Positions 1,017-31,225 are shown, numbered from the stretch's first letter. The stretch: 33,741 bases of DNA from Burkholderiales bacterium (GCA_005800795.1 SYEN01000459.1:1-33741), one strand, 5' to 3'. The notes: generated by a model not told the origin, from the letters alone. Program-made: numbers and translations.

Positions 1017-1045
1017 GTATCTTATTGATTTATTTGATTATTTTA
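1017..1045 (+). repeat. AT-rich boundary motif, weak copy (g)
   Basis: GTATCTTATTGATTTATTTGATTATTTTA matches about 19/29 of the consensus GTAAGTATTTGTTTTAATTGAATTATTTT. It lies in the convergent gap and overlaps the last codons (LKNKIIK) of the amidohydrolase. Confidence 0.35.
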
Positions 1046-2379
1046 TTTTTCAACACCGCACGATCAATTTCCACACCCTTGATAAACGTGCGCGCGATGC
1101 GCCGTGTGTTGCGGATGTCGTCCAGCGGATTGGCATCCAGCACCAAAAAATCCGCGCGTTTGCCCGGCGCTAGTGTGCCGGTGTCGGGCAGTTGCAGATA
1201 TTCCGCGCCACGGCTGGTGGCGGCGACGATCACTTCCATGGTGGTCATACCGGCCGAGTGCATCAACTCCAGTTCACGCTGTTCGGCGTAACCAAACAAA
1301 TGATCGGGCAGGCCGGTGTCGGCGCCGAGGATGACGCGCGCGCCGGCATCTTTCAGCCTTGCGGTGTTGCGATGCACGTTTCGGTAAATACCGCGCACGC
1401 GCTCAACAATAGCCGGATCGCGCGGCGCCCACAGCCCCTTCATGCGCTCGATCACCTCGGGGGACGCGGTGTCCTTCAACAGCCCGGCGAGGTACGGTTC
1501 TTCAAACCACGGTGGCGTACTGGTGTGCGTGTTGCGTTCGCCGCCGCCCATGTTGGGCATCACGAACAGACGGTTGCGAATCACCGATACCAGCAGCGAT
1601 TCGTCCATCACGGCGTCGCGCACCAGGTGCGCGAAGCTGTCCACCTTGGCGGCGGCAAGGCCCACCGCGTCGCGGTGATAAAACACGTGCGCACTGACGC
1701 GCAGATTGTGTTTCTTCGCTTCATCCACTGCGGCAGCGTATAACTCTGGTGACAGACTCGGTGCGCGGCCGCCGCGATCGTCGACCCAGATCTTGATAGC
1801 GTTGACCTTGCGCGCGGCCTGCTCACGCACGGCCTGACGGATTTGCTCCTCGGTGGTGACTTCGTACGCAATGCCTTTGTAGGCCATCGCGCCGGGGCCG
1901 GCATTGGGCGCGCCGATGCCACGTCCCGCCACCAGCAGCAACGCCCCACCGAGCTTGCCGGCGATCTGCTCGTCGCGCATTTGTATCGCCAGATCGCCAC
2001 GCTCAATGCCCTGCGACATCACCACGCCCACGCCGTAATAGAGCGCCAGGTTCAGATCGTTGAGAATGACTTCGCGGGTATAGTTCCCGGCACCATAAGT
2101 CAGTCCCTTCTGAAATCCCGGGTGCACGTGCGTGCTGATGAGCGTGGGCATCACGGTTTTGCCGGACAGATCGACACGTACCATACCCTCAGATGCTACA
2201 AACTCGCCGCGTTTGCCGACCCGCGTTATCAAGCCGCCCTCGACCACAAACACCGCCGATTCGATGGCCGGGCTGCCGTCGCCGGGAATCAATCGCGCAC
2301 CCTCGTAAAATTGCGCACCTGCCGTGGCGCACCACGCCAGCACACTGGCCACAACGCACCGCAATGCAGACCGGATCAT
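1030..2379 (-). CDS. Secreted metal-dependent amidohydrolase family protein
   Basis: HxH metal motif (LISTHVHPGF) and overall amidohydrolase-like sequence. I trimmed the start from 2550 to the ATG at 2379, which is preceded by GGAGGGG and opens a signal peptide (MIRSALRCVVASVLAWCATAGA). This also removes the overlap with the divergent DUF1330 gene. Confidence 0.8.
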   Translation of the reverse strand: MIRSALRCVVASVLAWCATAGAQFYEGARLIPGDGSPAIESAVFVVEGGLITRVGKRGEFVASEGMVRVDLSGKTVMPTLISTHVHPGFQKGLTYGAGNYTREVILNDLNLALYYGVGVVMSQGIERGDLAIQMRDEQIAGKLGGALLLVAGRGIGAPNAGPGAMAYKGIAYEVTTEEQIRQAVREQAARKVNAIKIWVDDRGGRAPSLSPELYAAAVDEAKKHNLRVSAHVFYHRDAVGLAAAKVDSFAHLVRDAVMDESLLVSVIRNRLFVMPNMGGGERNTHTSTPPWFEEPYLAGLLKDTASPEVIERMKGLWAPRDPAIVERVRGIYRNVHRNTARLKDAGARVILGADTGLPDHLFGYAEQRELELMHSAGMTTMEVIVAATSRGAEYLQLPDTGTLAPGKRADFLVLDANPLDDIRNTRRIARTFIKGVEIDRAVLKNKIIK

Positions 2380-2542
2380 GGAACCCCTCCTTGCCGAAAG
2401 GCACTCAGTATAAGCGCGAGCCATGGTGAACAAGGCGAACCACGCGACCAACGCGAATAGCGGTAAACTTGTCCGGCGCAGTTTTCTGATCCACACCCCG
2501 TCTTGTACAAACCCAACCCGTTCAACTTCTCCGGAGACTTTC

Positions 2543-2839
2543 ATGGCCAATGCGTACTGGATTGCCTTTTATAAATCCATCAAGAATCCCGATCAACTGG
2601 CTGCGTATGCCAAGCTCGCGCCCGCCGCGATTCAAGCCCACGGCGGCAAATTTCTCGTGCGTGGTACGCCCTCCAAAACCTACGAACTGGGGTTGAATCA
2701 ACGCGTGGTGGTGATCGAATTCCCCAGTGTCGAAAAAGCCATTGCAGCCCATGACAGTGAAGGCTATCAGGCTGCACTCAAGGTGTTGGGCAATGGCGTC
2801 GAGCGCGATATGCGCATTGTTGAAGGGTATACACCATGA
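2543..2839 (+). CDS. DUF1330 domain protein
   Basis: MANAYWIAFYKSIKNPDQLAAYAKLAPAAIQAHGGKFLVRG...VVVIEFPSVEKAIAAHDSEGYQAA matches the DUF1330 pattern from memory. The ATG at 2543 has a GGAGA 6 nt upstream. The listed 2423 start adds a non-homologous extension. Confidence 0.8.
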   Translation: MANAYWIAFYKSIKNPDQLAAYAKLAPAAIQAHGGKFLVRGTPSKTYELGLNQRVVVIEFPSVEKAIAAHDSEGYQAALKVLGNGVERDMRIVEGYTP

Positions 2840-3576
2840 GCTCGCCTTCCGCTGCTGTGCTCGCCCAACTCGCGCCCACTGGCAAGCTGCGCGCGGGCAT
2901 CAACTTTCAAAATCCGCTGCTCACCAGGCTTGGCCCCAATGGCGAACAAAGCGGTGTCGCTGTGGATCTGGTACACGAACTTGCGCGCCGCATGGGCGTG
3001 CCCATCGAAGTCATTGTGTATCTCTCAGCCGGTGAATTGGCCGAATCGGTCGCCAGCGGCAAATGGGATGTATCGGTGCTGGCCGTTGAAGCGGAACGCG
3101 CGAAAGACATTGCCTTCGCCGGCCCCACCACGGAAATTGTGGCCACCTATCTGGTGCCGCCCGGATCGAAGCTGCAAAAAATCGAGGATGTGGACAGCCC
3201 CGGCGTGCGCATCGCGCTGGGTGCGAAGAGCGGCTACGATCTTTATCTCGCGCGCACGTTGAAGCACGCACAGCGTGTGCCGGTCGCCGGTTCCGGGCCT
3301 GCCTTCACACAGTTTGTCGCTGACAAGCTGGAAGCCTACGCCGGTCTCAAAACGGAAATGGCAAAGTTCGCCACGCAAATGCCGGGCTGCCGCATCCTCG
3401 ATGGACGTTTCATGACAGTGTGCCACACGGCGGGTGTGCCGCGTGGACGCGGCCCTGAGGGCGAAGCGTATCTCACCGCCTTCGTCGAAGCGGTCAAGGC
3501 CGAAGGCTTGGTGGCCAAGTGGATAGACAAGAGCGGTGTTGATGGCCTATCGGCCGCGCCGCTGACCCATGCGTAA
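2836..3576 (+). CDS. Family-3 solute-binding-domain protein (SBP_bac_3-like), no obvious signal peptide
   Basis: The start overlaps the DUF1330 stop (ATGA). The fold pattern is polar-amino-acid-binding-protein-like (KLRAGINFQNPLL, GVAVDLVHELARRMGVP, WDVSVLAVEAERAKDIAF). The N-terminus MSSPSAAVLAQLAPTGK lacks a hydrophobic leader. Confidence 0.65.
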   Translation: MSSPSAAVLAQLAPTGKLRAGINFQNPLLTRLGPNGEQSGVAVDLVHELARRMGVPIEVIVYLSAGELAESVASGKWDVSVLAVEAERAKDIAFAGPTTEIVATYLVPPGSKLQKIEDVDSPGVRIALGAKSGYDLYLARTLKHAQRVPVAGSGPAFTQFVADKLEAYAGLKTEMAKFATQMPGCRILDGRFMTVCHTAGVPRGRGPEGEAYLTAFVEAVKAEGLVAKWIDKSGVDGLSAAPLTHA

Positions 3577-3613
3577 CTCGCGCAGGACGCATCGCGCCTT
3601 CCGTCGACTTATC

Positions 3614-3642
3614 ATAAATATTTGTTTTAATTGATTTTTTTA
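3614..3642 (+). repeat. AT-rich boundary motif, strong copy (a)
   Basis: ATAAATATTTGTTTTAATTGATTTTTTTA matches 24/29 of the consensus. It sits immediately upstream of the lactonase start. Confidence 0.6.
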
Positions 3643-3653
3643 AGAGGCAGGCC

Positions 3654-4838: not shown

Positions 4839-4906
4839 GCAAACTTAACAGATAGCCCGATGCCGCACGTGTACGCGCGGGACGGGGACTACACCTCCCA
4901 CGCAAT

Positions 4907-5880
4907 CTACTCAAGCCTGATGTTGGCCACCTTGACGATTTTCGCGTACTTTGCGGTCTCCGCACGAATGAAAGCACTAAACTCCGACGGCTCATTGCCG
5001 ACTGGTTCAGCCCCGATATTCGCGATTCTTTCCTTCACGTCGTTTAGCCGCAAGAGCTTGATCGTCTCGTTGTGCAGCCTTGCGATGGCGTCTTTATTGA
5101 CAGCCGAGGGCGCCACCAGACCCCACCACGTGTTCACTTCGACGCCGGGCACGCCGCCTTCCTTGACAGTGGGTACATCAGGCAACAACGGAGAACGCTG
5201 GGCAGCAGTAATGGCAATGGCGCGCAGCTTGCCTTGCCGTACCTGATTGATCACCGGCGGAACCGAGTCGAAGTTCATGTCGACGTGCCCCGCAATCAAA
5301 TCGATGAGCGCCTGGCCGCTCCCTTTGTACGGCACATGCAGCATGTCAACGCCCGACTGCAATTTGAAGAGTTCGGCAGCGAGGTGCTGAATGCTGCCCG
5401 CGCCCGAGGAGGCGTAGCGCATCTGACCGGGCCGCGCTTTCGCCAGCGCGACCAGATCCTTGACGCTTTTCACCGGCAGCGAGGGGTGCACCACCAATAG
5501 GTTGGGGCCGGTTGCCACCAGCGAGATGGTCGCAAAATCCCGCTGCGGATCATAGGGAAGTTTGGGCACCAACGAAGGCAGCACCGAGACCGCCGCAATA
5601 TGCGCCATCATGATGGTGTAGCCATCCGGCGCCGCTTTTGCGAGTTGTTCGGCGGCGAGTTGGCCTGCCGCGCCGCCACGGTTATCGATCAGCACCTGTT
5701 GGCCTAAAGTGTTTCCGACAGTTTTTGGCCGACGATACGACCGATGATATCGGTGCCGCCGCCGGGCGCGAACCCCACGAGCATACGTATACTCTTGGCC
5801 GGGTAGTCCTGAGCGAACGCTGTCCCGGAGAGCGTCAACACGAGTGCTATTGCTGCCGCTTTGGTCAGGTCAAATTTCAT
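4907..5880 (-). pseudogene. Bug/TctC-family periplasmic binding protein gene disrupted by a 2-nt insertion
   Basis: ATG at 5880 (AAGGAA SD) encodes MKFDLTKAAAIALVLTLSGTAFAQDYPAKSIRMLVGFAPGGGTDIIGRIVGQKLSETL, then TAG at 5704-5706. The rest of the protein (GQQVLIDNRGGAAG... to stop at 4907) continues in another frame. Deleting the TA at 5705-5706 restores ...SETLGQQVLIDNRGG. Confidence 0.75.
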
Positions 5881-5939
5881 GGGGTTCCTTATGTTGATTG
5901 TTTCGTCGGCCCGTTTGCGGCAAAAACCACCGCCGGCAG

Positions 5940-6836: not shown

Positions 6837-6911
6837 GATGAAATGTCCTTACGCAACACAGTGCGGCGGGTTGCGGCCAATTCCCGCGGTTTGCACCACG
6901 CCGATTAGTTT

Positions 6912-6940
6912 ATAACTATTTGATTTTTAAACAATATTTA
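6912..6940 (+). repeat. AT-rich boundary motif, subfamily II copy (f)
   Basis: ATAACTATTTGATTTTTAAACAATATTTA is close to copy (l). The reverse strand contains AATCAA-ATAG-TTA, matching the IHF core WATCAANNNNTTR. Confidence 0.45.
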
Positions 6941-6980
6941 ATAGGCGCACACGGCCCACGACCGCGTGCGTTGGCTTCAA

Positions 6981-9251: not shown

Positions 9252-9280
9252 AAAAATATTCAATTAAATCAAATACTTAC
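9252..9280 (-). repeat. AT-rich boundary motif, strong copy (d)
   Basis: The reverse strand reads GTAAGTATTTGATTTAATTGAATATTTTT, 26/29 to consensus. The plus strand contains AATCAA-ATAC-TTA, a perfect IHF core. It lies just upstream of the MBL gene. Confidence 0.6.
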
Positions 9281-9289
9281 AGGATTCTC

Positions 9290-11452: not shown

Positions 11453-11481
11453 ATAAAAATGCAAATAAAACAAATTCTTAC
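11453..11481 (-). repeat. AT-rich boundary motif, strong copy (j), overlapping the start of a Bug gene
   Basis: The reverse strand reads GTAAGAATTTGTTTTATTTGCATTTTTAT, 24/29 to consensus. On the plus strand it supplies the ATG and the first codons (MQIKQILT) of the Bug protein. Confidence 0.55.
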
Positions 11482-12421
11482 AATTTCACTACTCTTTCAA
11501 GTAATGGCAAGTACCCACGCCGCCGATTACCCCACACGCCCGATTCGCCTGATCGTCGCGCAAACCGCCGGTGGCAATTCCGACATGGTGGCACGCGCCT
11601 ACGGCCAGCGGCTGGGTGAAAAACTCGGCCAGCAAATTGTGGTGGATAATCGCGGCGGCGGCTCCGGCATCATCGCCACCGAAATCGTCGTGAACGCACA
11701 GCCCAATGGTTATACGCTGCTGCTCTCCCCCACCGCGCACGCCATCAACCCCAGCCTGATCGCCAAGCTGCCGTACGACACGCAGCGCGACGTGAAAGCG
11801 ATTTCGCTGCTTGGCATCGGTTACAACATTCTGGTGGTCACGCAAAACCACGCAGCGCGCACCGTGCGCGATCTCATCAACAGCGCCAAGGCCCGGCCCG
11901 GCAAGGTCACTTATGCGTCGTCGGGAACGGCGGGTGCCTCGCATCTCACCGGCGAACTGTTTCGCGTGATGGCGGGCATCGACATCCTGCACGTGGCCTA
12001 CAAAGGTGCTCCCGCGTCGCTCACCGCGCTGGTCAGCGGCGAAATCGATTTCAGCTTCAGCAGCATGTCGAGCACGCTGCCGCTGGTGCGCGGCGGGCGG
12101 CTTCGCGCGCTGGGCGTATCGTCGCCCGAACGCTGGCCGTCGTTGCCAGAAATTCCCACCGTGTCCGAAGCCAGTGTTCCGGGTTATGAAAGCTCAAGCT
12201 GGCAGGGGCTCTTCGGCCCGGCCAAGTTACCGGTGAATCTGGTAACACGGCTGCACCGCGAACTCGCCGACATCGCCAAGACCGCAGACATGCAAAAGCG
12301 CCTATCCAACGAAGGTCTGCTGCCACAAGGCACTACACCGCAGGAATTTGAAAAATTCATCGCGGTGGAGATCGCCAAGTGGGCGAAGGTGGTCAAGGCG
12401 GCGGGGATTACGGCGCGGTGA
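11459..12421 (+). CDS. Bug/TctC-family periplasmic binding protein
   Basis: Signal peptide, then the family hallmark DYPTRPIRLIVAQTAGGNSDMVAR...VVVDNRGGGSG, and the C-terminal PQEFEKFIAVEIAKWAKVVKAAGI. Confidence 0.9.
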   Translation: MQIKQILTISLLFQVMASTHAADYPTRPIRLIVAQTAGGNSDMVARAYGQRLGEKLGQQIVVDNRGGGSGIIATEIVVNAQPNGYTLLLSPTAHAINPSLIAKLPYDTQRDVKAISLLGIGYNILVVTQNHAARTVRDLINSAKARPGKVTYASSGTAGASHLTGELFRVMAGIDILHVAYKGAPASLTALVSGEIDFSFSSMSSTLPLVRGGRLRALGVSSPERWPSLPEIPTVSEASVPGYESSSWQGLFGPAKLPVNLVTRLHRELADIAKTADMQKRLSNEGLLPQGTTPQEFEKFIAVEIAKWAKVVKAAGITAR

Positions 12422-16057: not shown

Positions 16058-16086
16058 AATTTTATTCAATTAATACAATAGGTTAT
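16058..16086 (-). repeat. AT-rich boundary motif copy (e)
   Basis: The reverse strand reads ATAACCTATTGTATTAATTGAATAAAATT, 20/29 to consensus with the core TATTGTATTAATTGAAT. It lies upstream of the VIT gene, in the same orientation as that gene. Confidence 0.5.
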
Positions 16087-16286
16087 GAAACCTCACGCGT
16101 GCCTATACGATTCGACTGGATGTCCCGTAGCGGGTTCCCGCTGCGGTTTGGAGCCCCCACACGGCCGCCCGGCGAAGCGCAAGCACTTCGTTGACAGCGC
16201 AGCGGAATAACGCTATTCAGGCGCTTGAAGAAACTCGTGTTCACCCTTGTCGATCCCGCCCCGGGACTTATTCCAGGAAACCTTCC

Positions 16287-17150
16287 ATGCCCACCACTTA
16301 CAACCCCGCTGCCCAGTTCGAGATCAAAGTCTGGGACGTTGAATTCCGCAAGACCGCCTCGCGCCAGTTGATGGCGCGCATTTATCAACCCCAGGGCGAC
16401 GGGCCGTTCCCGGTGCTGCTCGATCTGCACGGCGGCGCCTGGAACAACAAGGATCGTCACGCCAATGCGCCGATGGACGACGCCATCGCCAAAAGCGGCG
16501 TGCTGGTGGTGGCCATCGACATGTCGCAGGCGCCGGAAGCGCCGTATCCCGCGTGCGTGCAGGAGGCGAGCTACGGCATCCGCTGGTTGAAATCCAAAGC
16601 GATTGAATGGAACGGTGACTCGTCCACGCTGGGCGTGCTGGGCAGTTCCAGCGGCGGCCACGTGGCGCAGTTGCTGGGCATGCGGCCCAACGATGGGCGC
16701 TACAACGTGCACGCGGTGCCGGGCGCGCCGGGCATTAACTCGCGCGCGGCGTATATCGCGACGCGCTCGCCGATCAGCGATCCGTTCGCCCGCTTCAAGC
16801 AGGCTGAGAAAATGAAGCGCGATCACATGATCAAAAACAGCACCACGTTTTTCAACCCGTGGGAATCGATCCACGAAGCCAATCCTCAAGAAATGCTGGA
16901 GCGCGGCGAGAAAGTCGAACTGCCGCCGATGCTCGTCATGCAGGGCGGGCTGGACGACAACGTGATTCCCGTCATTCAGGAAAAATTCTCTGCCGCGTAT
17001 CGCAAGGCGGGCGGCCACTGCCAGTACGAGTTGTATGAAGGCTGCTCGCACGAATGGGTAGCCGAACCGTGCGAGGCCACCACCCGCGCGCAAAACATGG
17101 TGAAGGGCTTTATCGCTGAGCAATTGGCGGCGGGGCGCAAAGCGGTATAA
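16287..17150 (+). CDS. Alpha/beta hydrolase, esterase/lipase (HGG-motif, Abhydrolase_3-like)
   Basis: Oxyanion motif LDLHGGAW and nucleophile elbow GSSSGGH. The ATG at 16287 has an AGGAAA upstream. The listed 16191 start adds a non-homologous extension. Confidence 0.8.
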   Translation: MPTTYNPAAQFEIKVWDVEFRKTASRQLMARIYQPQGDGPFPVLLDLHGGAWNNKDRHANAPMDDAIAKSGVLVVAIDMSQAPEAPYPACVQEASYGIRWLKSKAIEWNGDSSTLGVLGSSSGGHVAQLLGMRPNDGRYNVHAVPGAPGINSRAAYIATRSPISDPFARFKQAEKMKRDHMIKNSTTFFNPWESIHEANPQEMLERGEKVELPPMLVMQGGLDDNVIPVIQEKFSAAYRKAGGHCQYELYEGCSHEWVAEPCEATTRAQNMVKGFIAEQLAAGRKAV

Positions 17151-17153
17151 TAT

Positions 17154-17185
17154 ATAAGTAATCGATTTACAACATATTTTTATTG
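17154..17185 (+). repeat. AT-rich island, weakest motif copy (h)
   Basis: ATAAGTAATCGATTTACAACATATTTTTATTG shares only the ends of the consensus. It lies between the esterase stop and yaeQ. Confidence 0.25.
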
Positions 17186-18107: not shown

Positions 18108-18151
18108 GCCGCGCACCCATGCCGCGTGGCCACCGCGCACCGGGAATTGAT

Positions 18152-18180
18152 GTAAACTATTGTTTTAATTGAATTATTTT
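18152..18180 (+). repeat. AT-rich boundary motif, strong copy (b)
   Basis: GTAAACTATTGTTTTAATTGAATTATTTT matches 25/29 of the consensus. It contains the palindrome TAATT-G-AATTA. It lies upstream of the proline-rich protein gene. Confidence 0.6.
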
Positions 18181-18210: not shown

Positions 18211-19053
18211 ATGAGCGCCACCTTCGATGATTACCGTCCGCGTCACGACGGTGTCACCATACCCACCATCGCGCTCTGGCTGGTGGCATCGCTGGTGCTA
18301 CACGTCGCACTGCTGCTGTGGGCGCCGCCGCTGACCAAGCCCAACACCGATGAACCGGTGCCGCCGCGGCTCACGGCCTATTTGCAATCCGCGCCGCAGC
18401 CGCCGGAGCCCGTGCTACCGGCGCCACGGGTGCTGCCGCCTCCACCACCGCGTGCCGCCCCGGCAGCGCCACCGCCGCCTACGAAATCTCCGGCCGCACC
18501 AGTGGTCGCACTGACAAAGCCCCAGCCTGTTCCGCCTGCGTTCACCACGCCCGCAACAGCGGACCCCGCAACAATACCGCCCCCCGAGGCCGATTTCGCC
18601 GCCCTTATCGCAGCACGCCAGCGCGCGCGCGGCGAAGATGTACCACGTGCCGACACAGAATCAGCCAACCGAGTCGCGATGACCCAGGCGACAGCAAAAT
18701 CGCCGCCAACCATCACCTTCGGCGAGCGCCCGCCCACGCCCAGTGGCGGCCTGTTTCAAATACGCCGCCGCGGTTACGACTACGCCGAATTCATGTTTTT
18801 CGGCTGGAATCAGAATTTCGGCCGTGTGGTGCCGCAGTTGATCGAGGTGCGCAAGGAAGGCAATAGCGATATCGACATCGCCGTCATCCGCAAAATTATC
18901 GCTCTCATCCGCGACCACGAGCGCGGTGACTTCCAGTGGTATTCGCAGCGCGTGGGTAAGAACCTCACGCTATCGGCGCGCGCGCGCGACAACGCCGGGC
19001 TGGAGGATTTTATGTTGCAGGAGTTCTACGAAGACTTGCACCGCTACCGGTAA
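18211..19053 (+). CDS. Hypothetical membrane-anchored protein with proline-rich linker
   Basis: One TM helix (IALWLVASLVLHVALLLWA), a long P/A-rich spacer (PPPPPRAAPAAPPPPTKSPAAP), and a globular C-terminus without recognisable TonB-C motifs. I prefer the ATG at 18211 over the listed TTG at 18169, which lies inside the AT-rich motif. Confidence 0.6.
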   Translation: MSATFDDYRPRHDGVTIPTIALWLVASLVLHVALLLWAPPLTKPNTDEPVPPRLTAYLQSAPQPPEPVLPAPRVLPPPPPRAAPAAPPPPTKSPAAPVVALTKPQPVPPAFTTPATADPATIPPPEADFAALIAARQRARGEDVPRADTESANRVAMTQATAKSPPTITFGERPPTPSGGLFQIRRRGYDYAEFMFFGWNQNFGRVVPQLIEVRKEGNSDIDIAVIRKIIALIRDHERGDFQWYSQRVGKNLTLSARARDNAGLEDFMLQEFYEDLHRYR

Positions 19054-19164: not shown

Positions 19165-20826
19165 TCAATCCTTCATCAACGCAAACGTCCAAACCGACCC
19201 GCCGGTGGGGATAATCGCCCCTGCCGAACGGCTGGGATTACTGCCGCCACGCCCCGACAGCACACTGACGTACTGCTGGCCTTTGTGCGTGTAGGTGATG
19301 ACCGGCGCGTTGATGCTGGAGCCGGTTTTGAATTGCCACAACTGCTTGCCGTCGGCTTGATCCAGCGCGATTACTTCGCCGGTGAGTTTGCCGGTGAAGA
19401 GCAGGCCGCCGTCGGTGCCCAGCGTGCCCGCCGATACGGCAAAGTCACGCAGCGGAATCTTCCACGCGGTTTTGCCGGTGAGCGGATTCATCGCCACGTG
19501 GTAGCCGGTAATTTCAGGAATCTTGGAGCTGGATTCGACGCCGATGTAGCTTGCGCCGACCACCAGCTTCACGTCGACGAATTTCATCACGCGGAAAATT
19601 TCCCACGAATTCAAATACAGCATGCCGGTGCGCGGGTTGTACGCCGACAGTGAGGCGTTGGTGCCCAGCCGCGGATTGATGGCGATGGTTTCGCCTTTCA
19701 CCGCTTTATCGTAGAGATCGGTCAGCACCGGCCGGCCGGTTTTCAGATCAATGTATTTGGCCCAGTTCTGGTCGGTGTACGCGTGCGCGGCGATCGGCTT
19801 GCCGTTGGTGCGGTCGAGCACATATACGAAACCATTCTTGTTGACGTTGATCAGCACCTTGCGCGGCTTGCCGTCGATCTGAATGTCGGCGACGATGTTC
19901 TCCGCCGTGGCGTCGTAGTCGTAGCTGTCGTTCGGCATGAATTGGTAGTACCACACCATCTCGCCGGTCTTGGGTTTGATCGCGATCACACTGGCGGCAA
20001 ACAGGCTGTCCATGCCTTCGCGGTATTTCGGGTTGTACGGTTCGGCGTTGCCGGTGCCGACAAACACCAGATCCAGTTCCGGATCGTAGGTCACCGGCTG
20101 CCACGTCGCCGCGCCGCCGTACTTCCACGCATCAGGCTGCGTGGCGTTCGGCCACGTTTCCGAGCCCGGCTCGCCGGGCGCGGGCACCGTCCAGCGCCGC
20201 CACAGTTGCTTGCCGGTGTCCGGATCGTAGCCGTCGATGAAGCCGCGCGCGGTACGGTCACCGCCCGCCATGCCGGAAATCAGCACGCCATTGGCGATCA
20301 TCGGCTGCACGATGCCGCCATAGCTTTCTTTCCATTCGCCGAATTTGGTTTTCCACAACTCCTTGCCGGTTTTCATGTCGAGCGCCTGCACATGCCCGTC
20401 GATGTTTTGCCGGAAGAGCTTGCCGTTGTAGATAGTCGCGTGGCCGCGCAGATACGCGCCGCCGGTGGTTACGCGCAACGCAGCGCGGTCGTACGTCACA
20501 GGCGTGCGCCAGATCTGGCGACCGGTGGCAATGTCGATGGCGAAGGTCCAGTTGCCGTTCACGACGTACATCACGCCGTTGTAGACGGTGGGTTGCGCCA
20601 GCTCACCCATGTCGTTGGCGAGACTGAAACTCCACACCGGCACCAGCCGCTTGACGTTGGATTTGTTGATCTGATTCAACGGGCTCCAACTGCGCGCGTG
20701 ATACCCCATGCCGTGCGTCAACACGTTATCGGTGTTCTTGCCGTCGTTCTGCAGCTCGTCCGTGGTCTGCGAAAAACTTGAATTGAAACAAATACTTAAC
20801 AATGCGCCTGCCAGTAGCTTTTTCAT
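19165..20826 (-). CDS. Divergent PQQ-dependent dehydrogenase (methanol/ethanol-family fold), paralogue A
   Basis: Full-length similarity to 8-bladed quinoprotein dehydrogenases (NVLTHGMGY..SPLNQINKSNVKRLVPVW, IDGYDPDTGKQLWR, YDPELDLVFVGTGNAEPYNPKYR, DSYDYDA, LDRTNGKPI, ITYTHKGQQYVSV). The ATG at 20826 has AAGGGAGA upstream and opens a signal peptide (MKKLLAGALLSICFNSSFS). Confidence 0.85.
   Translation of the reverse strand: MKKLLAGALLSICFNSSFSQTTDELQNDGKNTDNVLTHGMGYHARSWSPLNQINKSNVKRLVPVWSFSLANDMGELAQPTVYNGVMYVVNGNWTFAIDIATGRQIWRTPVTYDRAALRVTTGGAYLRGHATIYNGKLFRQNIDGHVQALDMKTGKELWKTKFGEWKESYGGIVQPMIANGVLISGMAGGDRTARGFIDGYDPDTGKQLWRRWTVPAPGEPGSETWPNATQPDAWKYGGAATWQPVTYDPELDLVFVGTGNAEPYNPKYREGMDSLFAASVIAIKPKTGEMVWYYQFMPNDSYDYDATAENIVADIQIDGKPRKVLINVNKNGFVYVLDRTNGKPIAAHAYTDQNWAKYIDLKTGRPVLTDLYDKAVKGETIAINPRLGTNASLSAYNPRTGMLYLNSWEIFRVMKFVDVKLVVGASYIGVESSSKIPEITGYHVAMNPLTGKTAWKIPLRDFAVSAGTLGTDGGLLFTGKLTGEVIALDQADGKQLWQFKTGSSINAPVITYTHKGQQYVSVLSGRGGSNPSRSAGAIIPTGGSVWTFALMKD
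20771..20799 (-). repeat. AT-rich boundary motif copy (k) embedded in the signal-peptide codons of PQQ paralogue A
   Basis: The reverse strand reads TTAAGTATTTGTTTCAATTCAAGTTTTTC, 23/29 to consensus. It encodes LSICFNSSFS. Confidence 0.5.
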
Positions 20827-21217: not shown

Positions 21218-21221
21218 CCGC

Positions 21222-22895
21222 TTACTCCGGCATCAGGGCAAAGGTCATGACCGAGCCGCCGGCCGGCACGGCATTGGCGGTGTAGCGCGCGGAGGAGATG
21301 CCGCCGCGGCCCACCTGCACCGACACATACTGCACGCCCTTGTGCGTGTAGGTGATGGGCGGCGCATTGACGCTCGAAGCGGTTTTGAACGACCACAGTT
21401 GTTTGCCGCTGTCGATATCCAGCGCGATCATTTCACCCGTCAGCTTGCCGGTGAACAACAGCCCGCCGCCAGTGGCGAGCATGCCGGCGGAACTCGGCAT
21501 ATCCCACAGCGGCGTCTCCCAAACCACTTTACCGGTTAGCGGCTCGATGGCGCGATGATGACCGACCGGTTCGCCCTTGGGATTCAGGCCTGTGGATTCG
21601 ATGCCGGTGGTGTTGCCGCCCAAAATGTGCTTGACCTCAACATACTTCATCACCCGCGCGAAGTTCCAGGTGTTGGCGTAAACCAGATTGGTGCGCGGAT
21701 TGAAAGCAATCAGCGTGGCGTTGGTACCGCGCGACGGCCACACATCAACCGTTTCACCTTTCAATGCGCGGTCAAGCAAGTCGGTATAGACCGGGCGACC
21801 GGTCTTCATATCAATGTGCGACGCCCAGTTCACACGCACATAGGGATTGGCCGCAATCAGCTGGCCGTTGGTGCGATCGAGCACATAGAGAAAGCCGCCC
21901 TTGTGCGCGTTAATCAATACCTTGCGCATTTTGCCCTCGACGCGCAAATCGGTAATCATCCATTCCGCATTGGCATCGAAGTCATACGGATCATTGGGCG
22001 TGGTCTGGTAGTACCACACCACTTCGCCCGTCTTCGGCCGCAGCGCCAGCACACAGGTGGTGCACAGGCTGTCCATGCCGTCGCGATACTTCGGGTTATA
22101 GGGCTGCGCGTTGCCGGTGCCGATGTAGACCAGATCAAGCTCCGGGTCGTACGATGCCGCCTGCCATGTCGCGCCGCCGCCGTATTTCCAGGCATCGGGC
22201 CAGGTTTTGTGCGGCCAGGTCTCGGAACCTTTTTCGCCGGGCGCGGGAATCGTCCAGGTTCGCCACAGGCGCTTGCCGGTATTCGGGTCGTAACCATCGA
22301 CAAACCCGCGCGTGGTGCTGTCGCCGCCGCTCATGCCGGACACCAGCACGCCATTGAACACCGCCGGCGCCACTGTGCCGCGACAACCCTCCACGAACGT
22401 TTCGCAGAATTTGGTGCGCCAGATTTCCTTGCCGGTTTTCATGTCGAGCGCGACCACATGCGCATCGAGCGTCTGGCGGAACAGCTTGCCTTCGTAAATC
22501 GTTGCAGCACCGCGCATGATGGCACCGGTGGACGCCACCCGCAGCGCCCCACGATCGTAGTTCACCGGCGTACGCCACAGTTGTTTGCCAGTGGCGACAT
22601 CAATGGCGAAGGTCCATTCGGCATTCACCACATACATCACACCGTCGTATACCGTCGGCTGCGCCAGTTCACCGTTGTTGTTGGCCGTGCTGAAATGCCA
22701 CACCGGCACCAACCGCTTGACGTTCGACTTGTTGATTTGCCGCAGCGGGCTCCAAGCCTTCAAGTCGTAGCCCATGCCGAAGTTCAGCACGTTGTCGGTG
22801 TTTTTCTGATTGCGGATATCGTCCAGCGTTTGCGCCTGGACCAGCGCACTGCAGGCCAACACGACAGCGCATACCAAGTATTTGATTTTAAACAT
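21222..22895 (-). CDS. Divergent PQQ-dependent dehydrogenase, paralogue B
   Basis: Colinear with A and C (NVLNFGMGY, VDGYDPNTGKRLWR, DPYDFDA, ITYTHKGVQYVSV). Signal peptide MFKIKYLVCAVVLACSALVQA. It carries extra Cys pairs (CETFVEGC, CTTC) that A and C lack. Confidence 0.85.
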   Translation of the reverse strand: MFKIKYLVCAVVLACSALVQAQTLDDIRNQKNTDNVLNFGMGYDLKAWSPLRQINKSNVKRLVPVWHFSTANNNGELAQPTVYDGVMYVVNAEWTFAIDVATGKQLWRTPVNYDRGALRVASTGAIMRGAATIYEGKLFRQTLDAHVVALDMKTGKEIWRTKFCETFVEGCRGTVAPAVFNGVLVSGMSGGDSTTRGFVDGYDPNTGKRLWRTWTIPAPGEKGSETWPHKTWPDAWKYGGGATWQAASYDPELDLVYIGTGNAQPYNPKYRDGMDSLCTTCVLALRPKTGEVVWYYQTTPNDPYDFDANAEWMITDLRVEGKMRKVLINAHKGGFLYVLDRTNGQLIAANPYVRVNWASHIDMKTGRPVYTDLLDRALKGETVDVWPSRGTNATLIAFNPRTNLVYANTWNFARVMKYVEVKHILGGNTTGIESTGLNPKGEPVGHHRAIEPLTGKVVWETPLWDMPSSAGMLATGGGLLFTGKLTGEMIALDIDSGKQLWSFKTASSVNAPPITYTHKGVQYVSVQVGRGGISSARYTANAVPAGGSVMTFALMPE

Positions 22896-22902
22896 TATTT
22901 TA
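22874..22902 (+). repeat. AT-rich boundary motif, subfamily II copy (l), spanning the PQQ-C stop and PQQ-B start
   Basis: CCAAGTATTTGATTTTAAACATTATTTTA is very similar to copy (f). The reverse strand has AATCAA-ATAC-TTG, an IHF core. It contains both the ATG of paralogue B and the TAA of paralogue C. Confidence 0.45.
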
Positions 22903-24570: not shown

Positions 24571-24626
24571 AAGTCCTCCCTTGACGTTTGACGCAGGCGA
24601 ACTTTATACCGTGAAGCCCCGCGCCG

Positions 24627-25571: not shown

Positions 25572-25626
25572 CGCCGTAGTCCGCGAGTTTACGCAAACGA
25601 TTTTGTTCACGCGTACCGTCAGGCCG

Positions 25627-25743
25627 TTATACACGGCTCTGCCAAATCAGCGGCGCACGGCTTGAATGCAAACAGGCAATAACATACACCGCGTCGATGA
25701 TGTCCAACCGCGCCGCCGGCACGAAAACGACTGCCCGGATCAA
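25627..25743 (-). pseudogene. Vestigial RelE/ParE-like toxin (38 codons, internally deleted)
   Basis: TTG start overlapping the upstream stop (TTGA). The peptide LIRAVVFVPAARLDIIDAVYVIACLHSSRAPLIWQSRV joins a typical toxin N-terminus (vvF.p.A..dl.ea) directly to the typical C-terminus (vlAv.H..R.P..W). About 55 central residues are missing. Confidence 0.45.
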
Positions 25744-25856
25744 GGTACCCGTGCGGCAAGTTCCGCATCGCCCAAGCTATCCCATATGTCCCCAATGAGC
25801 GCGAGGCGTTCTGGCGGACACAGTTTCGCGATTTCGTCTTGGGTCAGGGCAGGCAT
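25740..25856 (-). pseudogene. Truncated addiction-module antitoxin fragment (Unstab_antitox / TIGR02574-like, 38 codons)
   Basis: MPALTQDEIAKLCPPERLALIGDIWDSLGDAELAARVP contains the family core ERL.LI..(I/L)WDSL, but it ends where full-length members continue for about 35 more residues. There is no SD. Confidence 0.45.
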
Positions 25857-25981
25857 GGAGGCAGATTACCGTATACCGCGCTATTTGTTAAGCCACTCGC
25901 GCGTGCTTGCGTCCCGATCACGTCGCGGCGCAAAGCTTGCGATGCGATATCCGAGCCACACACTCAAGAACCCTGATTTGA

Positions 25982-26319
25982 CGCCCCAAGCTACACAGCA
26001 TCGCATGGTTCGCCACAACCGCGCCGGGCATGTCGGTGCTGAAAACACATGCCAATAGCGGGCGGCTGCGTGCGCTGGCGATGTCCAGCGCCAAACGTTT
26101 GGCAATCACGCCGGATATTCCCACCCTTGCCGAGGCCAGCCTCAAGGATTATCAAAGCAAATCGTGGAACGCACTGGCGGCACCGCGCCAGACGCCGGAG
26201 GCCATCGTGCTGCGCCTGAATCGCGCGATGAGCGCGCTGTTGAGCTCGCGCGCTACGCGCGCGAGGAAATCGTGCGTTTTCAGCCGTTGGTGCAAAGCAT
26301 CGGCTTGAAGCCGGAATAG
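25982..26319 (+). pseudogene. 3' fragment of a Bug/TctC gene, with internal deletion and frameshift
   Basis: After an in-frame TGA at 25979-25981 the frame reads ...IAWFATTAPGMSVLKTHANSGRLRALAMSSAKRLAITPDIPTLAEASLKDYQSKSWNALAAPRQTPEAIVLRLNRAM. This aligns to roughly the last third of the intact Bug gene at 11459. The normal C-terminus (ELARYAREEIVRFQPLVQSIGLKPE, stop 26317-26319) is in another frame, and about 25 residues between the two parts are missing. No N-terminal two-thirds is present. Confidence 0.75.
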
Positions 26320-26425
26320 GCGCAAATCCGGGCGCCACACGGGTGACAAGCCTGCACCGTGGGCGTAGCATGATGTTTTTGCCGCAGCCGGTGTCTTGAT
26401 ACTTCGCCATCAGGAGATTCGCATC

Positions 26426-27322: not shown

Positions 27323-27351
27323 TCTTTGTTGATCGATACAGGAGACACGTC

Positions 27352-28251: not shown

Positions 28252-28268
28252 ACGGGCGAGGCTATATC

Positions 28269-28297
28269 GTAACTATTTTATTTTATTCAAGAATTTT
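28269..28297 (+). repeat. AT-rich boundary motif-like island (i)
   Basis: GTAACTATTTTATTTTATTCAAGAATTTT matches 23/29 of the consensus. Most of it encodes the native C-terminus (KKFLNKIK), which is homologous to RRFLDKIR of the neighbouring paralogue, so the assignment is uncertain. Confidence 0.3.
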
Positions 28298-29175: not shown

Positions 29176-30032
29176 CAGCGGATTTTATCCAAAAACCTTC
29201 TCGCCACCACGATAAAACCCGCCGGATTATCCAGCGTGATGTGATGATCGCAATTCGGCACCTCGTCGACTTCCACCTGCGGCGCGCGCGATTTCACGTC
29301 TGCGACGGTGACCGGATCGATACGCTGGCTGCGTTCACCCTTCATCAGCAGCACCGGAATCCTGATTTTGTTCCACAACGGAAAACTGTCCACCATTTCG
29401 CGATTGTTGTAGACCTTGCGATCCACCTTGTGCCGCCAGCGGCCATCGTCGAACTGGCGGCTGCTGCCTTTTGCGATATGGCGATGAATCTCTGCTGCTG
29501 CGGTGCTGCCGCCAGGGTGCACCTTGTAAGCGGCGATGAATTCTTCCTGCGTGGCGTAGTGGCGGCCTTCGCGATTGCTGATCGCGTTGAAGCCGGCGAT
29601 ACGCTCGGGCGTAAACTTGATGGTGGTATCCACCAACATGAATGCCTTCACACGGCCCGGATACGTGGCGCAGTAAATGCTGCCGATCATGCCACCCATC
29701 GAGTGGCCGATCAGCACAAAATCACGCAAATCAAGTTGCTCGGCCAGCACCTTCACATCGGCGGCGTGCTGGTGGTAGCCGTAGGTCGGCGTGGGTGACG
29801 GATCCCACTGGCTGTCGCCGTGACCCCGCAAATCGACTGCGCGCAAGTGGTAATCGGTGGTAAAACCGTGCGCGACAAAATCATACCAATGCGCATTGGC
29901 TGCGCCGCCGTGCAGGCACAATAGTTCGGGCTTGCCGGGGGTGCCGTAATCCTGCACCCGCAGTTTGAGGCCGTTGACCTCGATATAGCTCTCCGCATAA
30001 GGCGCGGGCCGTGCCATAGCTGTTGCAGACAT
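29175..30032 (-). CDS. Alpha/beta hydrolase (tandem paralogue 1)
   Basis: LLCLHGGAANAHWYDF and the GHSMGG elbow. Colinear with the downstream paralogue. Confidence 0.85.
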   Translation of the reverse strand: MSATAMARPAPYAESYIEVNGLKLRVQDYGTPGKPELLCLHGGAANAHWYDFVAHGFTTDYHLRAVDLRGHGDSQWDPSPTPTYGYHQHAADVKVLAEQLDLRDFVLIGHSMGGMIGSIYCATYPGRVKAFMLVDTTIKFTPERIAGFNAISNREGRHYATQEEFIAAYKVHPGGSTAAAEIHRHIAKGSSRQFDDGRWRHKVDRKVYNNREMVDSFPLWNKIRIPVLLMKGERSQRIDPVTVADVKSRAPQVEVDEVPNCDHHITLDNPAGFIVVARRFLDKIR

Positions 30033-30063
30033 CTTTCGTGCCTATTCCCGTTCGCGCCTATGC

Positions 30064-31182
30064 CTAATATTCCCTGAACATCCGCCGAATTTCACCCAGA
30101 TCACGGGTCTTGGTCAATGCCAACATCAGCATAATGCGCGCCTTCTGTGGATTGAGATTGTCGCCGGGCACCATGCCTTCGTCGTCGTATTCCTTGCGCG
30201 CAATCACGCGGCCATTGCCGGTGCGATTGGAACGCACGATCACGGGCCGCGTGTCGATCGGCCCCAGCGTCTTCACCGCCGCACGCTCCGCATTGGACAG
30301 TCCGCCCGCGCCAGTGCCCGCAAACACCATGCCGGCCGCGTTCGCGCCCGCCGCCTTTAGTGCATCCACGCCGGGCTCGGCGTAAGCGTAGAGAATTTCC
30401 ACTTTGGGTAACGCGCTGAGTTTACTCACGTCGAACTCTGACTTCGCGGTATGGCGCCGGGTCGACGTACGATAGTAAACGACCTCGTCCGGATCAACAT
30501 AGCCGAGAAACCCCAGTTCGCCGGAGCGAAAAGCCTCGACGCGATAGGTGTTCGACTTGGTCACATCGCGCGCGCCGTTGATTTCATCGTTCATCACCAC
30601 CAGCGCGCCCTTGCCGCGCGACACCGGCGCGCCCGCCACGCGTATCGCATTGAGCAGATTAAGCGGCCCGTCGGCACTGATCGCGGTGGCCGGGCGTTGC
30701 GAACCGACCAGCACCACCGGCTTGTCGTGCTTGACGGTGAGATGCAGAAAATACGCGGTCTCCTCCAATGTGTTGGTACCGTGTGTCACCACCACGCCGG
30801 CCACCGCCGGCTCTTCGCTGAAAATCGCGTTAATGCGCGCGGCAAGCTTCAGCCACACCGCCGTGTTCATGTTGGTGCTGCCGATGTTGATGATTTGCTC
30901 GACGCGCACCTGGGCGTACTGCTTGATTTCCGGCACGGCTTCAACCAGTTCCGAACCGAGACTCGAGCCCGCCTTGTACTCGGACAGGCTGGTGGTCGAA
31001 CCGCCACGCCCGGCTATCGTGCCGCCGGTGGACAGCACCACCACCAGCGGAAGCGCAGATGCACCCGCCGCGCCTGACGGCCCTTGCGCGACAGCCGTCA
31101 CCGGCACCACCGCCAGCGCAACAGCGAACCACAGCCCTGCGCGGAAACCGCCCGCACGGCACCAACGCCTATCAGAAAACAT
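30064..31182 (-). CDS. ansB: Periplasmic type II L-asparaginase / glutaminase-asparaginase
   Basis: Signal peptide, TGGTIAG with the nucleophilic Thr, the flexible-loop Tyr (SEYKAG), VLVGSQRPATAISADGPLNLLNA, and DVTKSNT. The second signature reads THGTNTLEETAYFL, with Asn where HGTDT is canonical. Confidence 0.85.
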   Translation of the reverse strand: MFSDRRWCRAGGFRAGLWFAVALAVVPVTAVAQGPSGAAGASALPLVVVLSTGGTIAGRGGSTTSLSEYKAGSSLGSELVEAVPEIKQYAQVRVEQIINIGSTNMNTAVWLKLAARINAIFSEEPAVAGVVVTHGTNTLEETAYFLHLTVKHDKPVVLVGSQRPATAISADGPLNLLNAIRVAGAPVSRGKGALVVMNDEINGARDVTKSNTYRVEAFRSGELGFLGYVDPDEVVYYRTSTRRHTAKSEFDVSKLSALPKVEILYAYAEPGVDALKAAGANAAGMVFAGTGAGGLSNAERAAVKTLGPIDTRPVIVRSNRTGNGRVIARKEYDDEGMVPGDNLNPQKARIMLMLALTKTRDLGEIRRMFREY

Positions 31183-31196
31183 AATAGTGACCTCAT

Positions 31197-31225
31197 GTAA
31201 GTATATGTTTTAATTGATTTATTTA
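31197..31225 (+). repeat. AT-rich boundary motif, strong copy (c)
   Basis: GTAAGTATATGTTTTAATTGATTTATTTA matches 26/29 of the consensus. It lies 15 nt upstream of the asparaginase start, in the opposite orientation to that gene. Confidence 0.6.

Follow-up and report, generated by a model that had tools for sequence, protein, structure and literature searches.

The stretch of DNA analysed here (33,741 nt, hereafter the window) contains exactly 12 sharp AT-rich islands in its 33.7 kb of 60% GC sequence, every one of them at a gene boundary, and all 12 carry the same asymmetric motif of ~30 nt. Its best-conserved part, the core WAWCAANNNNTTA with an A-tract in front of it, is built like an IHF site. 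Because this AT-rich, IHF-like word recurs at gene boundaries about every 2-3 kb in this uncultured betaproteobacterium and is also found in its relatives, it probably represents a genome-wide signal, architectural or for recognition and so far undescribed, rather than a gene-specific switch. As a tentative best reading, for which the chances seem to us somewhat short of even, the copies may together be binding sites, arranged as an array, for a DNA-bending protein of the IHF type.

The AT-rich islands and their common motif

Islands were defined by a composition scan (25-nt windows, A+T ≥ 76%), and the resulting set coincided with the 12 sites that a sequence-only reading of this DNA had listed, with no others (Table 1); the coordinates and match counts of that reading (26, 26, 25, 24, 24, 23 and 20 for the strong copies, 17-22 for the weaker ones) were reproduced. 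A de novo EM search run on the islands, on both strands and with composition-matched shuffles as the control, found the motif in 12/12 islands in the same register and orientation as before, with a log-likelihood of 128.7 against 58.4 for the shuffles (sd 4.0, max 66.1). The score lies so far above the shuffles that the similarity of the copies far exceeds what AT-richness alone would give, and the claim that the islands share a motif and are not random AT thus stands. Two details had to be revised: the register of the proposed 29-nt motif was right but the element is ~30 nt long, with a WAAAWW block added, and the copies set apart as a second subfamily belong, according to the EM search, to the same motif and not to a separate family.

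The element reads WAAAWW-ATTSAWTWAAAW-CAA-N4-TTA-YR or, on the strands of Table 1, WAAAWW ATTSAWT WAAAW-CAA-NNNN-TTA-YR, and its A+T content is 80-90%. The WAAAWW block, which in the orientation of the earlier consensus is an extra block at the 3' end, is located 15-18 nt upstream of C13. It is conserved, with A at 34-35 of 36 sites, even though it lay outside the scoring matrix and site selection. The top-conserved columns are A9-A11, C13, A14, A15, T20, T21 and A22, that is, WAWCAA-N4-TTA; the longest invariant run is at most 3 nt, the information being spread across 30 positions. Two variants, CAA-ATAG-TTA and CAA-TAGT-TTA, have the inner TAG moved by one base while CAA and TTA stay fixed, implying that the frame counts and the spacer does not.

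When hairpins were sought in ten copies and their flanks, folding was no better than in shuffles (z-scores -0.54 to +1.66); Rfam covariance models gave 0 matches at the gathering threshold on both strands, and a tRNA and tmRNA search of the window found none. Since the copies occur in either orientation, have no RNA structure and match no Rfam model, the element belongs to the DNA and not the RNA level. An intrinsic terminator, which would show a GC-rich hairpin and then a U-tract, was rejected, as there is no hairpin in or beside the copies and copies are also found in divergent gaps.

Table 1. The 12 copies of the element in the window.
Copy	Strand	Location	Score	Core	Further features
1016..1045	-	SulP (+) / amidohydrolase (-) convergent gap	19.7	CAATAAGATA, one mismatch vs CAANNNNTTA	encodes final codons and stop of the amidohydrolase (LKNKIIK*; ORF end 1030)
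3613..3642	-	gap from SBP_bac_3 stop (3576) to lactonase ATG (3654)	20.9	AAACAAATATTTA	lactonase ATG 11 nt from edge of copy
6911..6940	-	gap from Amidohydro_2 stop (6981) to TauD start (6836)	11.0	AATCAAATAGTTA, strict IHF core	
9252..9281	+	TauD (-, start 8986) / metallo-beta-lactamase (+, ATG 9290) divergent gap	25.8	AATCAAATACTTA, strict IHF core	best copy
11453..11482	+	YCII/TctC divergent gap (genes on Pfam basis)	21.8		includes TctC start codon (11459); encodes signal-peptide MQIKQILT
16058..16087	+	VIT-domain gene (-, start 15973) / esterase (+, start 16287) divergent gap	19.0		
17153..17182	-	directly after esterase stop (17150), 80 nt before YaeQ ATG (17262)	15.1		weak copy
18151..18180	-	gap from DUF3301 stop (18107) to ATG (18211) of TonB-like membrane protein	20.1		
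20771..20800	+	within signal-peptide codons of PQQ dehydrogenase (gene -, ATG 20826)	20.1		encodes LSICFNSSFS
22873..22902	-	across stop (22900-22902) of one PQQ dehydrogenase and start of the next	15.1	AATCAAATACTTG	encodes first 7 codons of the next PQQ dehydrogenase, MFKIKYL (ATG 22895)
28268..28297	-	TauD (+, stop 28251) / alpha/beta hydrolase (-) convergent gap	19.9		encodes hydrolase C-terminus KKFLNKIK* including stop codon
31196..31225	-	gap from TctC stop (31322) to asparaginase ATG (31182)	22.4		

Placement and spacing

No copy in the window lies in a gene body (0/12), 2/12 are in convergent gaps, and 10/12 adjoin or overlap a gene start. Gaps with a copy are ~45-80 nt longer than gaps without one. 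With an AT-only 21-mer pattern, 56/80 metagenome matches were in contigs of at least 55% GC, compared with 7/80 in a viral control collection. The 64 metagenome contexts that were classified comprised co-directional gaps (17 sense and 24 antisense), convergent gaps (12) and divergent gaps (11), so that the earlier claim of both orientations and varied gene contexts holds in the window and in the metagenome alike; copies in gene bodies numbered at most 3/83 (at most about 4%). The neighbours of these copies were 105 proteins of 150 Pfam families, housekeeping in character and including LptE, ThiC, IspH, FolD, MTHFR and a tRNA synthetase; the signal is genome-wide and is not a regulon.

The crowding at gene starts is what would be expected if the element were an expression module, namely a promoter, an UP element or an AU-rich translation-initiation region where GC-rich DNA would melt, or ribosomes load, more readily. 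In many metagenome copies, indeed, only 0-15 nt separate the end from a start codon, whichever the orientation and sometimes without room for a Shine-Dalgarno sequence, one strand of the motif resembles the UP-element consensus AAAWWTWTTTTNNNAAA, and the copy before the TonB-like gene has the look of a conserved cis-regulatory element whose distance to the ATG varies. Nevertheless, we regard this explanation, of which the promoter or UP-like module of the sequence-only reading is one form, as very improbable. Convergent gaps hold 2/12 of the window copies and 12/64 of the metagenome copies, copy-to-stop distances are as tight as copy-to-start distances, the sense and antisense numbers are about equal (17 vs 24), and copies are found at coding ends or only 0-10 nt from starts. 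No properly spaced -35/-10 pair exists in or beside the copies, where a sigma-70 promoter or UP element would show hexamers with 16-18 bp between them, always at the same position and upstream of genes only; a promoter scan gave 5 sites against 6.7 expected, one alone adjoining an island, and a search for sigma-54 motifs found none. In addition, no island is present in two of the window's divergent promoter gaps, at 2380-2550 and 25572-26395, and an expression module predicts no specific conserved bases such as C13.

Copies in this genome are fairly evenly spaced. The coefficient of variation (CV) of spacing in the window is 0.46 (P=0.026 vs boundary sampling), and at 23 multi-copy loci the mean spacing CV is 0.28 vs 0.46 by chance, a value reached in 0/5000 simulations. 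This even spacing, together with lineage-wide occurrence, the conservation of copies at orthologous sites and their coding for protein termini, goes beyond what the sequence-only reading had described.

Conservation and turnover in relatives

At copy 18151..18180, 8 genomes share AAAACAATAGTTTACA without change and a ninth has a recognisable version of it, while the flanking sequence and the spacing to the ATG differ between genomes; the copy supplies the sole invariant intergenic columns over the 9 genomes, start-codon columns aside. Copy 20771..20800 is maintained in a signal-peptide coding region by means of rare AT-rich codons; to judge from the sequences compared, both copies are under selection. 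The latter copy is found too in L006 and L012, and in its place L007-L011 have an equal-length GC-rich stretch, LLSACCGFSGAQT, which differs from it by substitutions only, with no indel. Orthologous copies of 22873..22902 are present in L006 and L010, and that of 16058..16087, weaker, in L006. Copy 17153..17182 is present in L005, L006 and L010 and absent in L012, whose esterase/YaeQ gap is 44 nt shorter, which fits an indel. The YCII/TctC gap has an AT island in all relatives; its motif has decayed in L008 and L009 but is still intact in L007, L010 and L012, and the KKFLNKIK*-type tail encoded by the motif is shared with two L010 paralogues. In the sister clade (L008, L009 and L011) there are only decayed remnants apart from one conserved copy. 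Copies thus persist at orthologous positions over genomes with 73-91% YaeQ identity, and the relatives show lineage "dialects" of the motif. The motif was absent from Noviherbaspirillum, Massilia and Rhodanobacter at equal GC content, and from these sequences it appears to be restricted to one uncultured Burkholderiales-like lineage.

A selfish mobile element of miniature size, inserting at gene boundaries as a very short analogue of MITEs or REPs, would account for the sharp edges of the copies, for the longer copy-bearing gaps and the shorter L012 gap, for the neighbouring ORFs that in the metagenome often stop at the first TAA of the element, and for the weak TATAA...TTATA symmetry at the ends of some copies. 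We give this origin little credence. There is no hairpin and no real terminal inverted repeat, no terminal repeats or target duplications were found in 36 + 83 aligned copies, and the joint signature of a MITE (terminal inverted repeats, target-site duplication and insertion polymorphism) was not found; we know of no MITE as short as 30 nt. The PQQ signal-peptide copy has the same length as its GC-rich orthologues, copies stay at orthologous positions, and random insertion would not give even spacing. Correia elements and REP/REPIN sequences are likewise dispersed intergenic repeats able to change gene ends, and Correia elements carry an IHF site, but Correia elements are 100-150 bp long, end in inverted repeats and have a duplicated TA, and REP/REPIN sequences are GC-rich imperfect palindromes with a stable hairpin, whereas the present element shows none of these features, does not fold and is AT-rich. 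Of the earlier suggestion of a REP- or Correia-type repeat, "dispersed intergenic repeat" is therefore a fair description and the mobile part is not supported, given the lack of palindrome, terminal inverted repeats and duplication and the copy that differs by substitutions only.

The same turnover by substitution can be considered from the viewpoint of DNA uptake sequences, which competent cells take up preferentially and which accumulate by mutation and biased uptake and recombination (molecular drive), as the USS in Pasteurellaceae and the DUS in Neisseriaceae have done. The extended Haemophilus USS is, like the motif, ~30 nt long with AT tracts. The element resembles them in being a high-copy short word whose composition contrasts with the genome, over-represented in both orientations (12 copies / 33.7 kb; USS and DUS densities are likewise around one per 1-3 kb) and without preference for a gap type, and in its lineage dialects and its decay in one sister clade; its even spacing was also counted in favour of this reading. 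Point substitutions with no indel account for the difference between at least one copy and its orthologues, and uptake sequences are thought to arise via point substitution (PMC1939737); copies also lie in weakly constrained coding positions, at signal peptides and termini, as described for uptake sequences (PMC2817400). We nevertheless consider such an origin improbable. Known uptake sequences have an invariant 9-12-nt core and are inside ORFs in 35-65% of cases (PMC2817400), whereas the present element is degenerate with no invariant short core, AT-rich in a GC-rich genome and nearly excluded from gene bodies. Real uptake sequences are, moreover, not especially evenly spaced (PMC1939737), and uptake would leave unexplained both the match to the IHF core and the one copy that is perfectly conserved in a clade where the others decayed.

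Candidate readers of the element

The strict IHF core WATCARNNNNTTR, which the sequence-only reading had reported in three islands, is indeed present in 3/12 window islands (shuffle mean 0.2) and in 6/29 islands of close relatives. A relaxed core, WAWCARNNNNTTR, occurs in 7/12 window islands (shuffle mean 0.2, max 2) and 19/29 islands of close relatives (shuffle mean 0.5), and in just 7/113 islands of other GC-rich proteobacteria (0.95 Mb). Among the roles proposed earlier, an IHF-like site appears to be the best reading, with the core columns enriched ~30-fold vs shuffled islands. The features of an IHF site are found in the 13-bp core, where conservation peaks at C13, A14, T20 and T21, in the A/T tract 5' of it, in the ~30-nt length of the island cores and in the absence of dyad symmetry or palindrome. 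IHF contacts ~30-35 bp and bends DNA sharply. WAWCAA-N4-TTA agrees with WATCARnnnnTTR and matches the in vivo E. coli IHF logos WAWCAACnnnTT and WWTCARSnnnTTA (PMC8407004).

The closest single site is of the lambda attP H' type, which is also ~30 bp, asymmetric and AT-rich, with a fixed CAA-N4-TTR frame and an A-tract 5'; AWCAAWTASTTAYR agrees at 12/14 positions with ATCAATTTGTTGCA, which forms the right half of H'. The motif differs from IHF sites in having A as often as T at the third core position, where E. coli IHF prefers T, in its A-tract ~2 bp farther from the core, in the additional ATTSAWT and YR, and in forming a dense, evenly spaced, lineage-specific array for which binding is predicted. 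As a dispersed, intergenic, high-copy repeat whose recognisable function is an IHF-type site, it resembles RIP/RIB (BIME-1) of E. coli; in RIP, however, GC-rich REP palindromes flank the IHF site, mainly at 3' ends of transcription units and in ~100 copies per genome, whereas the present element has no palindromes, occupies any gap type as well as coding ends, and is far more numerous by projection. To our knowledge, IHF sites that stand alone and are evenly spaced have no precedent.

All proteobacteria have IHF, yet the array is confined to one lineage and has decayed in a sister clade, a restriction that IHF alone does not explain. The extra information in the motif (ATTSAWT, YR and a non-random N4, WTAS) exceeds that of typical nucleoid-protein sites, which counts against IHF. 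The motif was compared with a large number of known AT-rich consensus sequences, so that a partial match to one of them by chance is not very unlikely. A different lineage-specific DNA-binding protein may read the sites, the likeness to the IHF core being partial or coincidental; an HU/IHF paralogue, an H-NS-like silencer-nucleation protein and a condensin or partition loader can be considered. The confinement of the motif to one lineage at equal GC content, its decay in the sister clade, its conserved positions beyond the IHF consensus and its even spacing would all suit such a protein, and we hold this possibility unlikely but worth serious attention. It names no specific protein, and the CAA-N4-TTA frame with its A-tract is exactly the layout of IHF, preserved even by the variants with the one-base shift.

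Returning to the IHF reading, the copies would be a ~30-bp asymmetric, double-stranded signal read by a sequence-specific DNA-bending nucleoid protein, and from the full IHF site layout, with the A-tract ~1.5 helical turns upstream of the core, we infer that the likeliest reader is IHF itself (the IhfA/IhfB heterodimer). In a GC-rich and tightly packed genome, copies would be placed wherever 30 AT-rich bp are tolerated, in gaps of any type and in terminal codons, and single copies may have been co-opted locally, one as the conserved element ahead of the TonB-like gene, others to supply stop codons, start codons or the lysine-rich N-region in signal peptides. Taken as a whole, the array would then bend the chromosome strongly, or punctuate it topologically, at intervals.

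An asymmetric AT-rich word in GC-rich DNA

When we scanned the stretch in 25-nt windows of at least 76% A+T, exactly 12 AT islands were found, each 36–63 nt long with sharp edges. They are the same 12 sites that the sequence-only reading had assigned to a 29-nt consensus, and its coordinates and match counts were all reproduced. De novo expectation-maximisation on both strands recovered the same register and orientation, with a log-likelihood of 128.7 for the islands against 58.4 ± 4.0 for shuffled islands. The copies that had been set apart as a second subfamily align in the same register as the rest and do not form a separate group. With the sites of relatives added, the element is about 30 nt long, W A A A W W A T T S A W T W A A A W C A A W T A S T T A Y R, and its 5' WAAAWW block carries A in 34–35 of 36 sites, though it lay outside the scoring matrix. 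Because scoring against an AT-rich background over GC-rich DNA gave meaningless positive scores for GC-rich words, at least 70% A+T was demanded of every site counted later.

The best-kept columns (A9–A11, C13, A14, A15, T20, T21 and A22) give WAWCAA-N4-TTA, with an A-tract 15–18 nt upstream. The accepted IHF consensus is WATCARnnnnTTR, and E. coli in vivo logos such as WAWCAACnnnTT and WWTCARSnnnTTA are most constant at C-A and T-T (PMC8407004); the core with its upstream A-tract has the layout of an IHF site. Relative to shuffled islands the core is about 30-fold enriched; relative to the AT islands of other GC-rich proteobacteria, the enrichment is about ten-fold. Between the variants CAA-ATAG-TTA and CAA-TAGT-TTA the inner TAG has moved by one base while CAA and TTA have not, as a frame-reading protein would predict. 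Our first-ranked reading, held tentatively, is an array of putative IHF-type bending-protein sites: an IHF-type protein would bind copies every 2–3 kb, bend the DNA and punctuate the chromosome, and individual copies would be recruited to local roles. Which protein reads the sites, and what it does to chromosome architecture, are both inferred. Points that weigh against this reading include the information that the motif holds beyond the IHF consensus and the many consensus sequences with which it was compared.

Among those compared by eye, FNR/CRP, ARG box, Fur box, OmpR/PhoB direct repeats, Fis, PsrA-type AAAC-N4-GTTT, BirA, dif and Tus-Ter did not suit the whole family. A few copies match the FNR/CRP word (TTGA-N6-TCAA) at 9 of 10 positions, with C as often as G at position 4, and the AAAC-N4-GTTT dyad is confined to the one-base-shift variant. 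Literature searches with motif words returned chance primer matches only, and topic searches found no description of the element.

Placement and spacing at gene boundaries

The window (58–64% GC) carries about 30 tightly packed genes, which encode periplasmic binding proteins and enzymes of catabolism and are rich in paralogues. They include five TctC/Bug receptors, five TauD dioxygenases, three tandem PQQ dehydrogenases plus a cytochrome c, three alpha/beta hydrolases, amidohydrolases, an asparaginase, YaeQ and DUF3301, and none of them is a transcription regulator. Two copies lie in convergent gaps, three in divergent gaps and seven between or within co-directional genes, and five enter coding sequence.

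Copies of the element that enter coding sequence in the window
Copy	Position in gene	Encoded residues
1016-1045	C-terminal tail including stop codon	LKNKIIK*
11453-11482	contains TctC start codon	MQIKQILT
20771-20800	within signal peptide	LSICFNSSFS
22873-22902	covers stop of one PQQ dehydrogenase and first seven codons of the next	MFKIKYL
28268-28297	C-terminal tail including stop codon	KKFLNKIK*

Of the 64 metagenome copies with two called neighbours, 41 are co-directional with them (17 sense, 24 antisense), 12 lie in convergent gaps and 11 in divergent ones; by our own estimate, placement that ignored gap type would produce roughly these proportions. The element frequently fills the entire gap: incoming reading frames take as their stop either the TAA in the 5' block or the one complementary to TTA, and start codons lie 0–15 nt off either edge, while at most 3 of 83 metagenome copies sit within gene bodies. 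In several metagenome contigs (L087, L103, L104, L118, L138 and L155) the copy supplies a start codon and a lysine/asparagine-rich signal-peptide N-region (MNKNKYL..., MQLKQIFT..., MKNTRSV...), just as happens at the TctC and PQQ genes of the window.

The TauD, TctC and PQQ genes had suggested a regulon of a transcription factor for sulphur or carbon starvation, which was rejected because the copies in metagenome contigs lie beside housekeeping genes. There, 105 neighbouring proteins belong to 150 Pfam families, many of which are housekeeping (LptE, ThiC, IspH, FolD, MTHFR, dihydroorotate dehydrogenase and a tRNA synthetase), and the sole frequent family is TctC (16 of 105). An expression module would suit some copies and not the whole family, and we consider it very improbable. 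Sigma-54 promoters were rejected, with 19 loose matches near copies against 25.5 expected, and sigma-70 geometry is neither enriched nor consistently positioned; the single strong sigma-70-like match by an island (17124-17151) overlaps the esterase stop codon. A terminator was rejected since the copies lack a hairpin and also occur in divergent gaps. Structured RNA or a hairpin repeat was likewise set aside, as ten copies folded together with their flanks gave z-scores of −0.54 to +1.66, no better than shuffled sequence; Rfam gave no match, and no tRNA or tmRNA was found. The divergent gap 25572-26395 (820 nt, gene-poor) holds only a 92-aa TctC fragment (26030-26308, profile positions 165–231) and no AT island, showing that divergent promoter regions here do not require the motif.

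Copies are spaced more evenly than expected by chance. The coefficient of variation (CV) of the window intervals is 0.46; the P value is 0.026 when gene boundaries are chosen at random and 0.007 when placement is uniform. For the 23 GC-rich loci that have at least three copies each the mean CV is 0.28, against 0.46 under the boundary null and 0.57 under the uniform null, and none of 5000 simulations reached the observed value; runs of consecutive intervals include 2212, 2320 and 2150 nt, and 2842 and 2846 nt.

Conservation, turnover and distribution

The copy at 18151-18180, in the gap between DUF3301 and a TonB-like gene, is at the same position in nine genomes, with AAAACAATAGTTTACA identical in eight of the nine. 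Apart from the start-codon region it forms the only invariant columns of the intergenic alignment. How far it lies from the ATG differs by about 30 nt among genomes. The product of the downstream gene (18211-19053) is TonB-like and gave no Pfam or NCBIfam match; it consists of a membrane anchor at the N-terminus, a long proline-rich linker and a C-terminal domain of about 100 aa. Membrane-anchored and proline-rich as it is, this product was rejected as a motif-binding protein.

Other copies are found in some relatives and missing in others. The signal-peptide copy is shared by the window, the related locus L006 and the more distant L012, and in loci L007–L011 a GC-rich sequence of equal length replaces it (LLSICFNSSFSQT versus LLSACCGFSGAQT). 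The alignment covers 39 bases, of which about half differ, and has no indel, so substitution accounts for the gain or loss of this motif; in the genomes that have it, it is kept in spite of codon preference. Indels may also occur in turnover, as the esterase/YaeQ gap of L012 has no copy and is 44 nt shorter. In the sister clade of L008, L009 and L011 the copy before the TonB-like gene is retained, and the other orthologous boundaries have only degenerate AT remnants. At L006 (3300-4040) and L010 (9230-9990) an additional gene of about 700 nt lies between esterase and YaeQ, directly downstream of a motif copy; the window and L005 are without it. In the window itself, the TctC gene at 4907-5907 (−) has an apparent frameshift near 5700, leaving the signal peptide and first ~60 residues (MKFDLTKAAAIALVLTLSGTAFAQ...) out of frame with the 262-aa body, either a pseudogene or an assembly error.

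The element works in either orientation, is neutral to gap type, is evenly spaced and is under selection within coding sequence, all of which indicates that it is read as double-stranded DNA. A DNA uptake sequence, which we think improbable, would share many features with it: a high-copy word whose composition contrasts with the genome, present in both orientations, arising by point substitution, tolerated in weakly constrained codons, and showing dialects and decay. However, known uptake sequences have invariant cores and lie 35–65% inside ORFs (PMC2817400), and in one analysis they were not especially evenly spaced (PMC1939737). A miniature mobile element, which is very unlikely in our judgement, fits some copies and not the family as a whole.

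Contigs of uncultured-bacterium assemblies (e.g. GCA_005797925.1) are 99% identical to the window; among species representatives the closest genomes are MAGs labelled Betaproteobacteria or Burkholderiales bacterium, and by YaeQ the closest cultured genus is Noviherbaspirillum (67% identity). Across 80 YaeQ-anchored genomic loci, the motif was found in the closest relatives (L005–L007, L010, L012 and L056) and a few other Burkholderiales MAGs, and was not found in Noviherbaspirillum, Massilia or Rhodanobacter loci of similar GC. AT islands in the lineage are three times as dense, at 0.36–0.38 per kb, as in other GC-rich proteobacteria, at 0.12 per kb. When metagenome contigs were scanned with the AT-only pattern WTSAATWAAAWCAAATASTTA, 56 of the 80 loci among the matches listed were at least 55% GC (median 59%), whereas viral contigs matched mostly in AT-rich DNA (median 41% GC; 7 of 80 loci at least 55%); the AT-only word is thus a real feature of GC-rich cellular genomes. 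Beyond the pattern positions, the metagenome copies have the same consensus in their flanks.

Some occurrences have features of their own. Metagenome contig L102 has copies at 905, 8677 and 14608 whose GC-rich flanks are alike for about 40 nt to either side, placing the motif within a larger repeated unit at 6–8 kb spacing. The GC-rich viral contigs L230 (2884, 2947) and L275 (2, 65) carry paired same-strand copies 63 nt apart, which recall the paired IHF sites of phage attachment or regulatory regions. A plasmid BLAST with the consensus gave mostly chance matches in AT-rich taxa. One good copy, ACTCAATCAAATCAAATACTTATC, scored 19 and lies at 20005-20028, in a gap free of annotation, on plasmid pPNAP03 (L289) of Polaromonas naphthalenivorans CJ2, a cultured member of the Comamonadaceae; the 40 kb of defence-system DNA around it holds no array. 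Many metagenome contigs (e.g. L088, L097, L101, L114, L149 and L152) end within about 100 nt of a copy, suggesting that AT islands interrupt assembly, either by a fall in coverage or by the collapse of repeats.

Such a distribution weakens the IHF reading: IHF is universal, but the array belongs to a single lineage and in one sister clade has fallen into decay. Another lineage-specific DNA-binding protein would account for both the restricted distribution and the extra conserved positions; we regard it as unlikely, if less so than uptake.

Likeness to known systems and meaning

E. coli RIP and Neisseria Correia elements, dispersed repeats bearing IHF sites, are closest in kind and uptake sequences closest in behaviour, but the defining features of both differ from those found here. 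It is distinctly improbable that a third family of uptake sequences has evolved independently here, with the motif as a self-DNA mark for natural transformation in an uncultured Burkholderiales lineage. It would then be the first AT-rich family and the first outside Pasteurellaceae and Neisseriaceae, in an abundant lineage of soil and freshwater, and IHF-like bendability would aid passage of DNA through the uptake pore. Should another protein or the uptake machinery be the reader, comparing motif-dense with motif-poor sister genomes would be a direct route to finding it.

The element is also a compact signature for assigning contigs to the lineage. It affects gene calling in MAGs of the lineage because it creates or extends ORF ends, and the apparent breaking of metagenome assemblies at the element is a further practical consequence. 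If the copies are IHF-type sites, they would form a regular array of strong bends at gene boundaries every 2–3 kb, an organisation undescribed in any model bacterium, under constraint strong enough to remodel signal peptides and protein C-termini, and the punctuation of a chromosome by a nucleoid protein would become directly testable.
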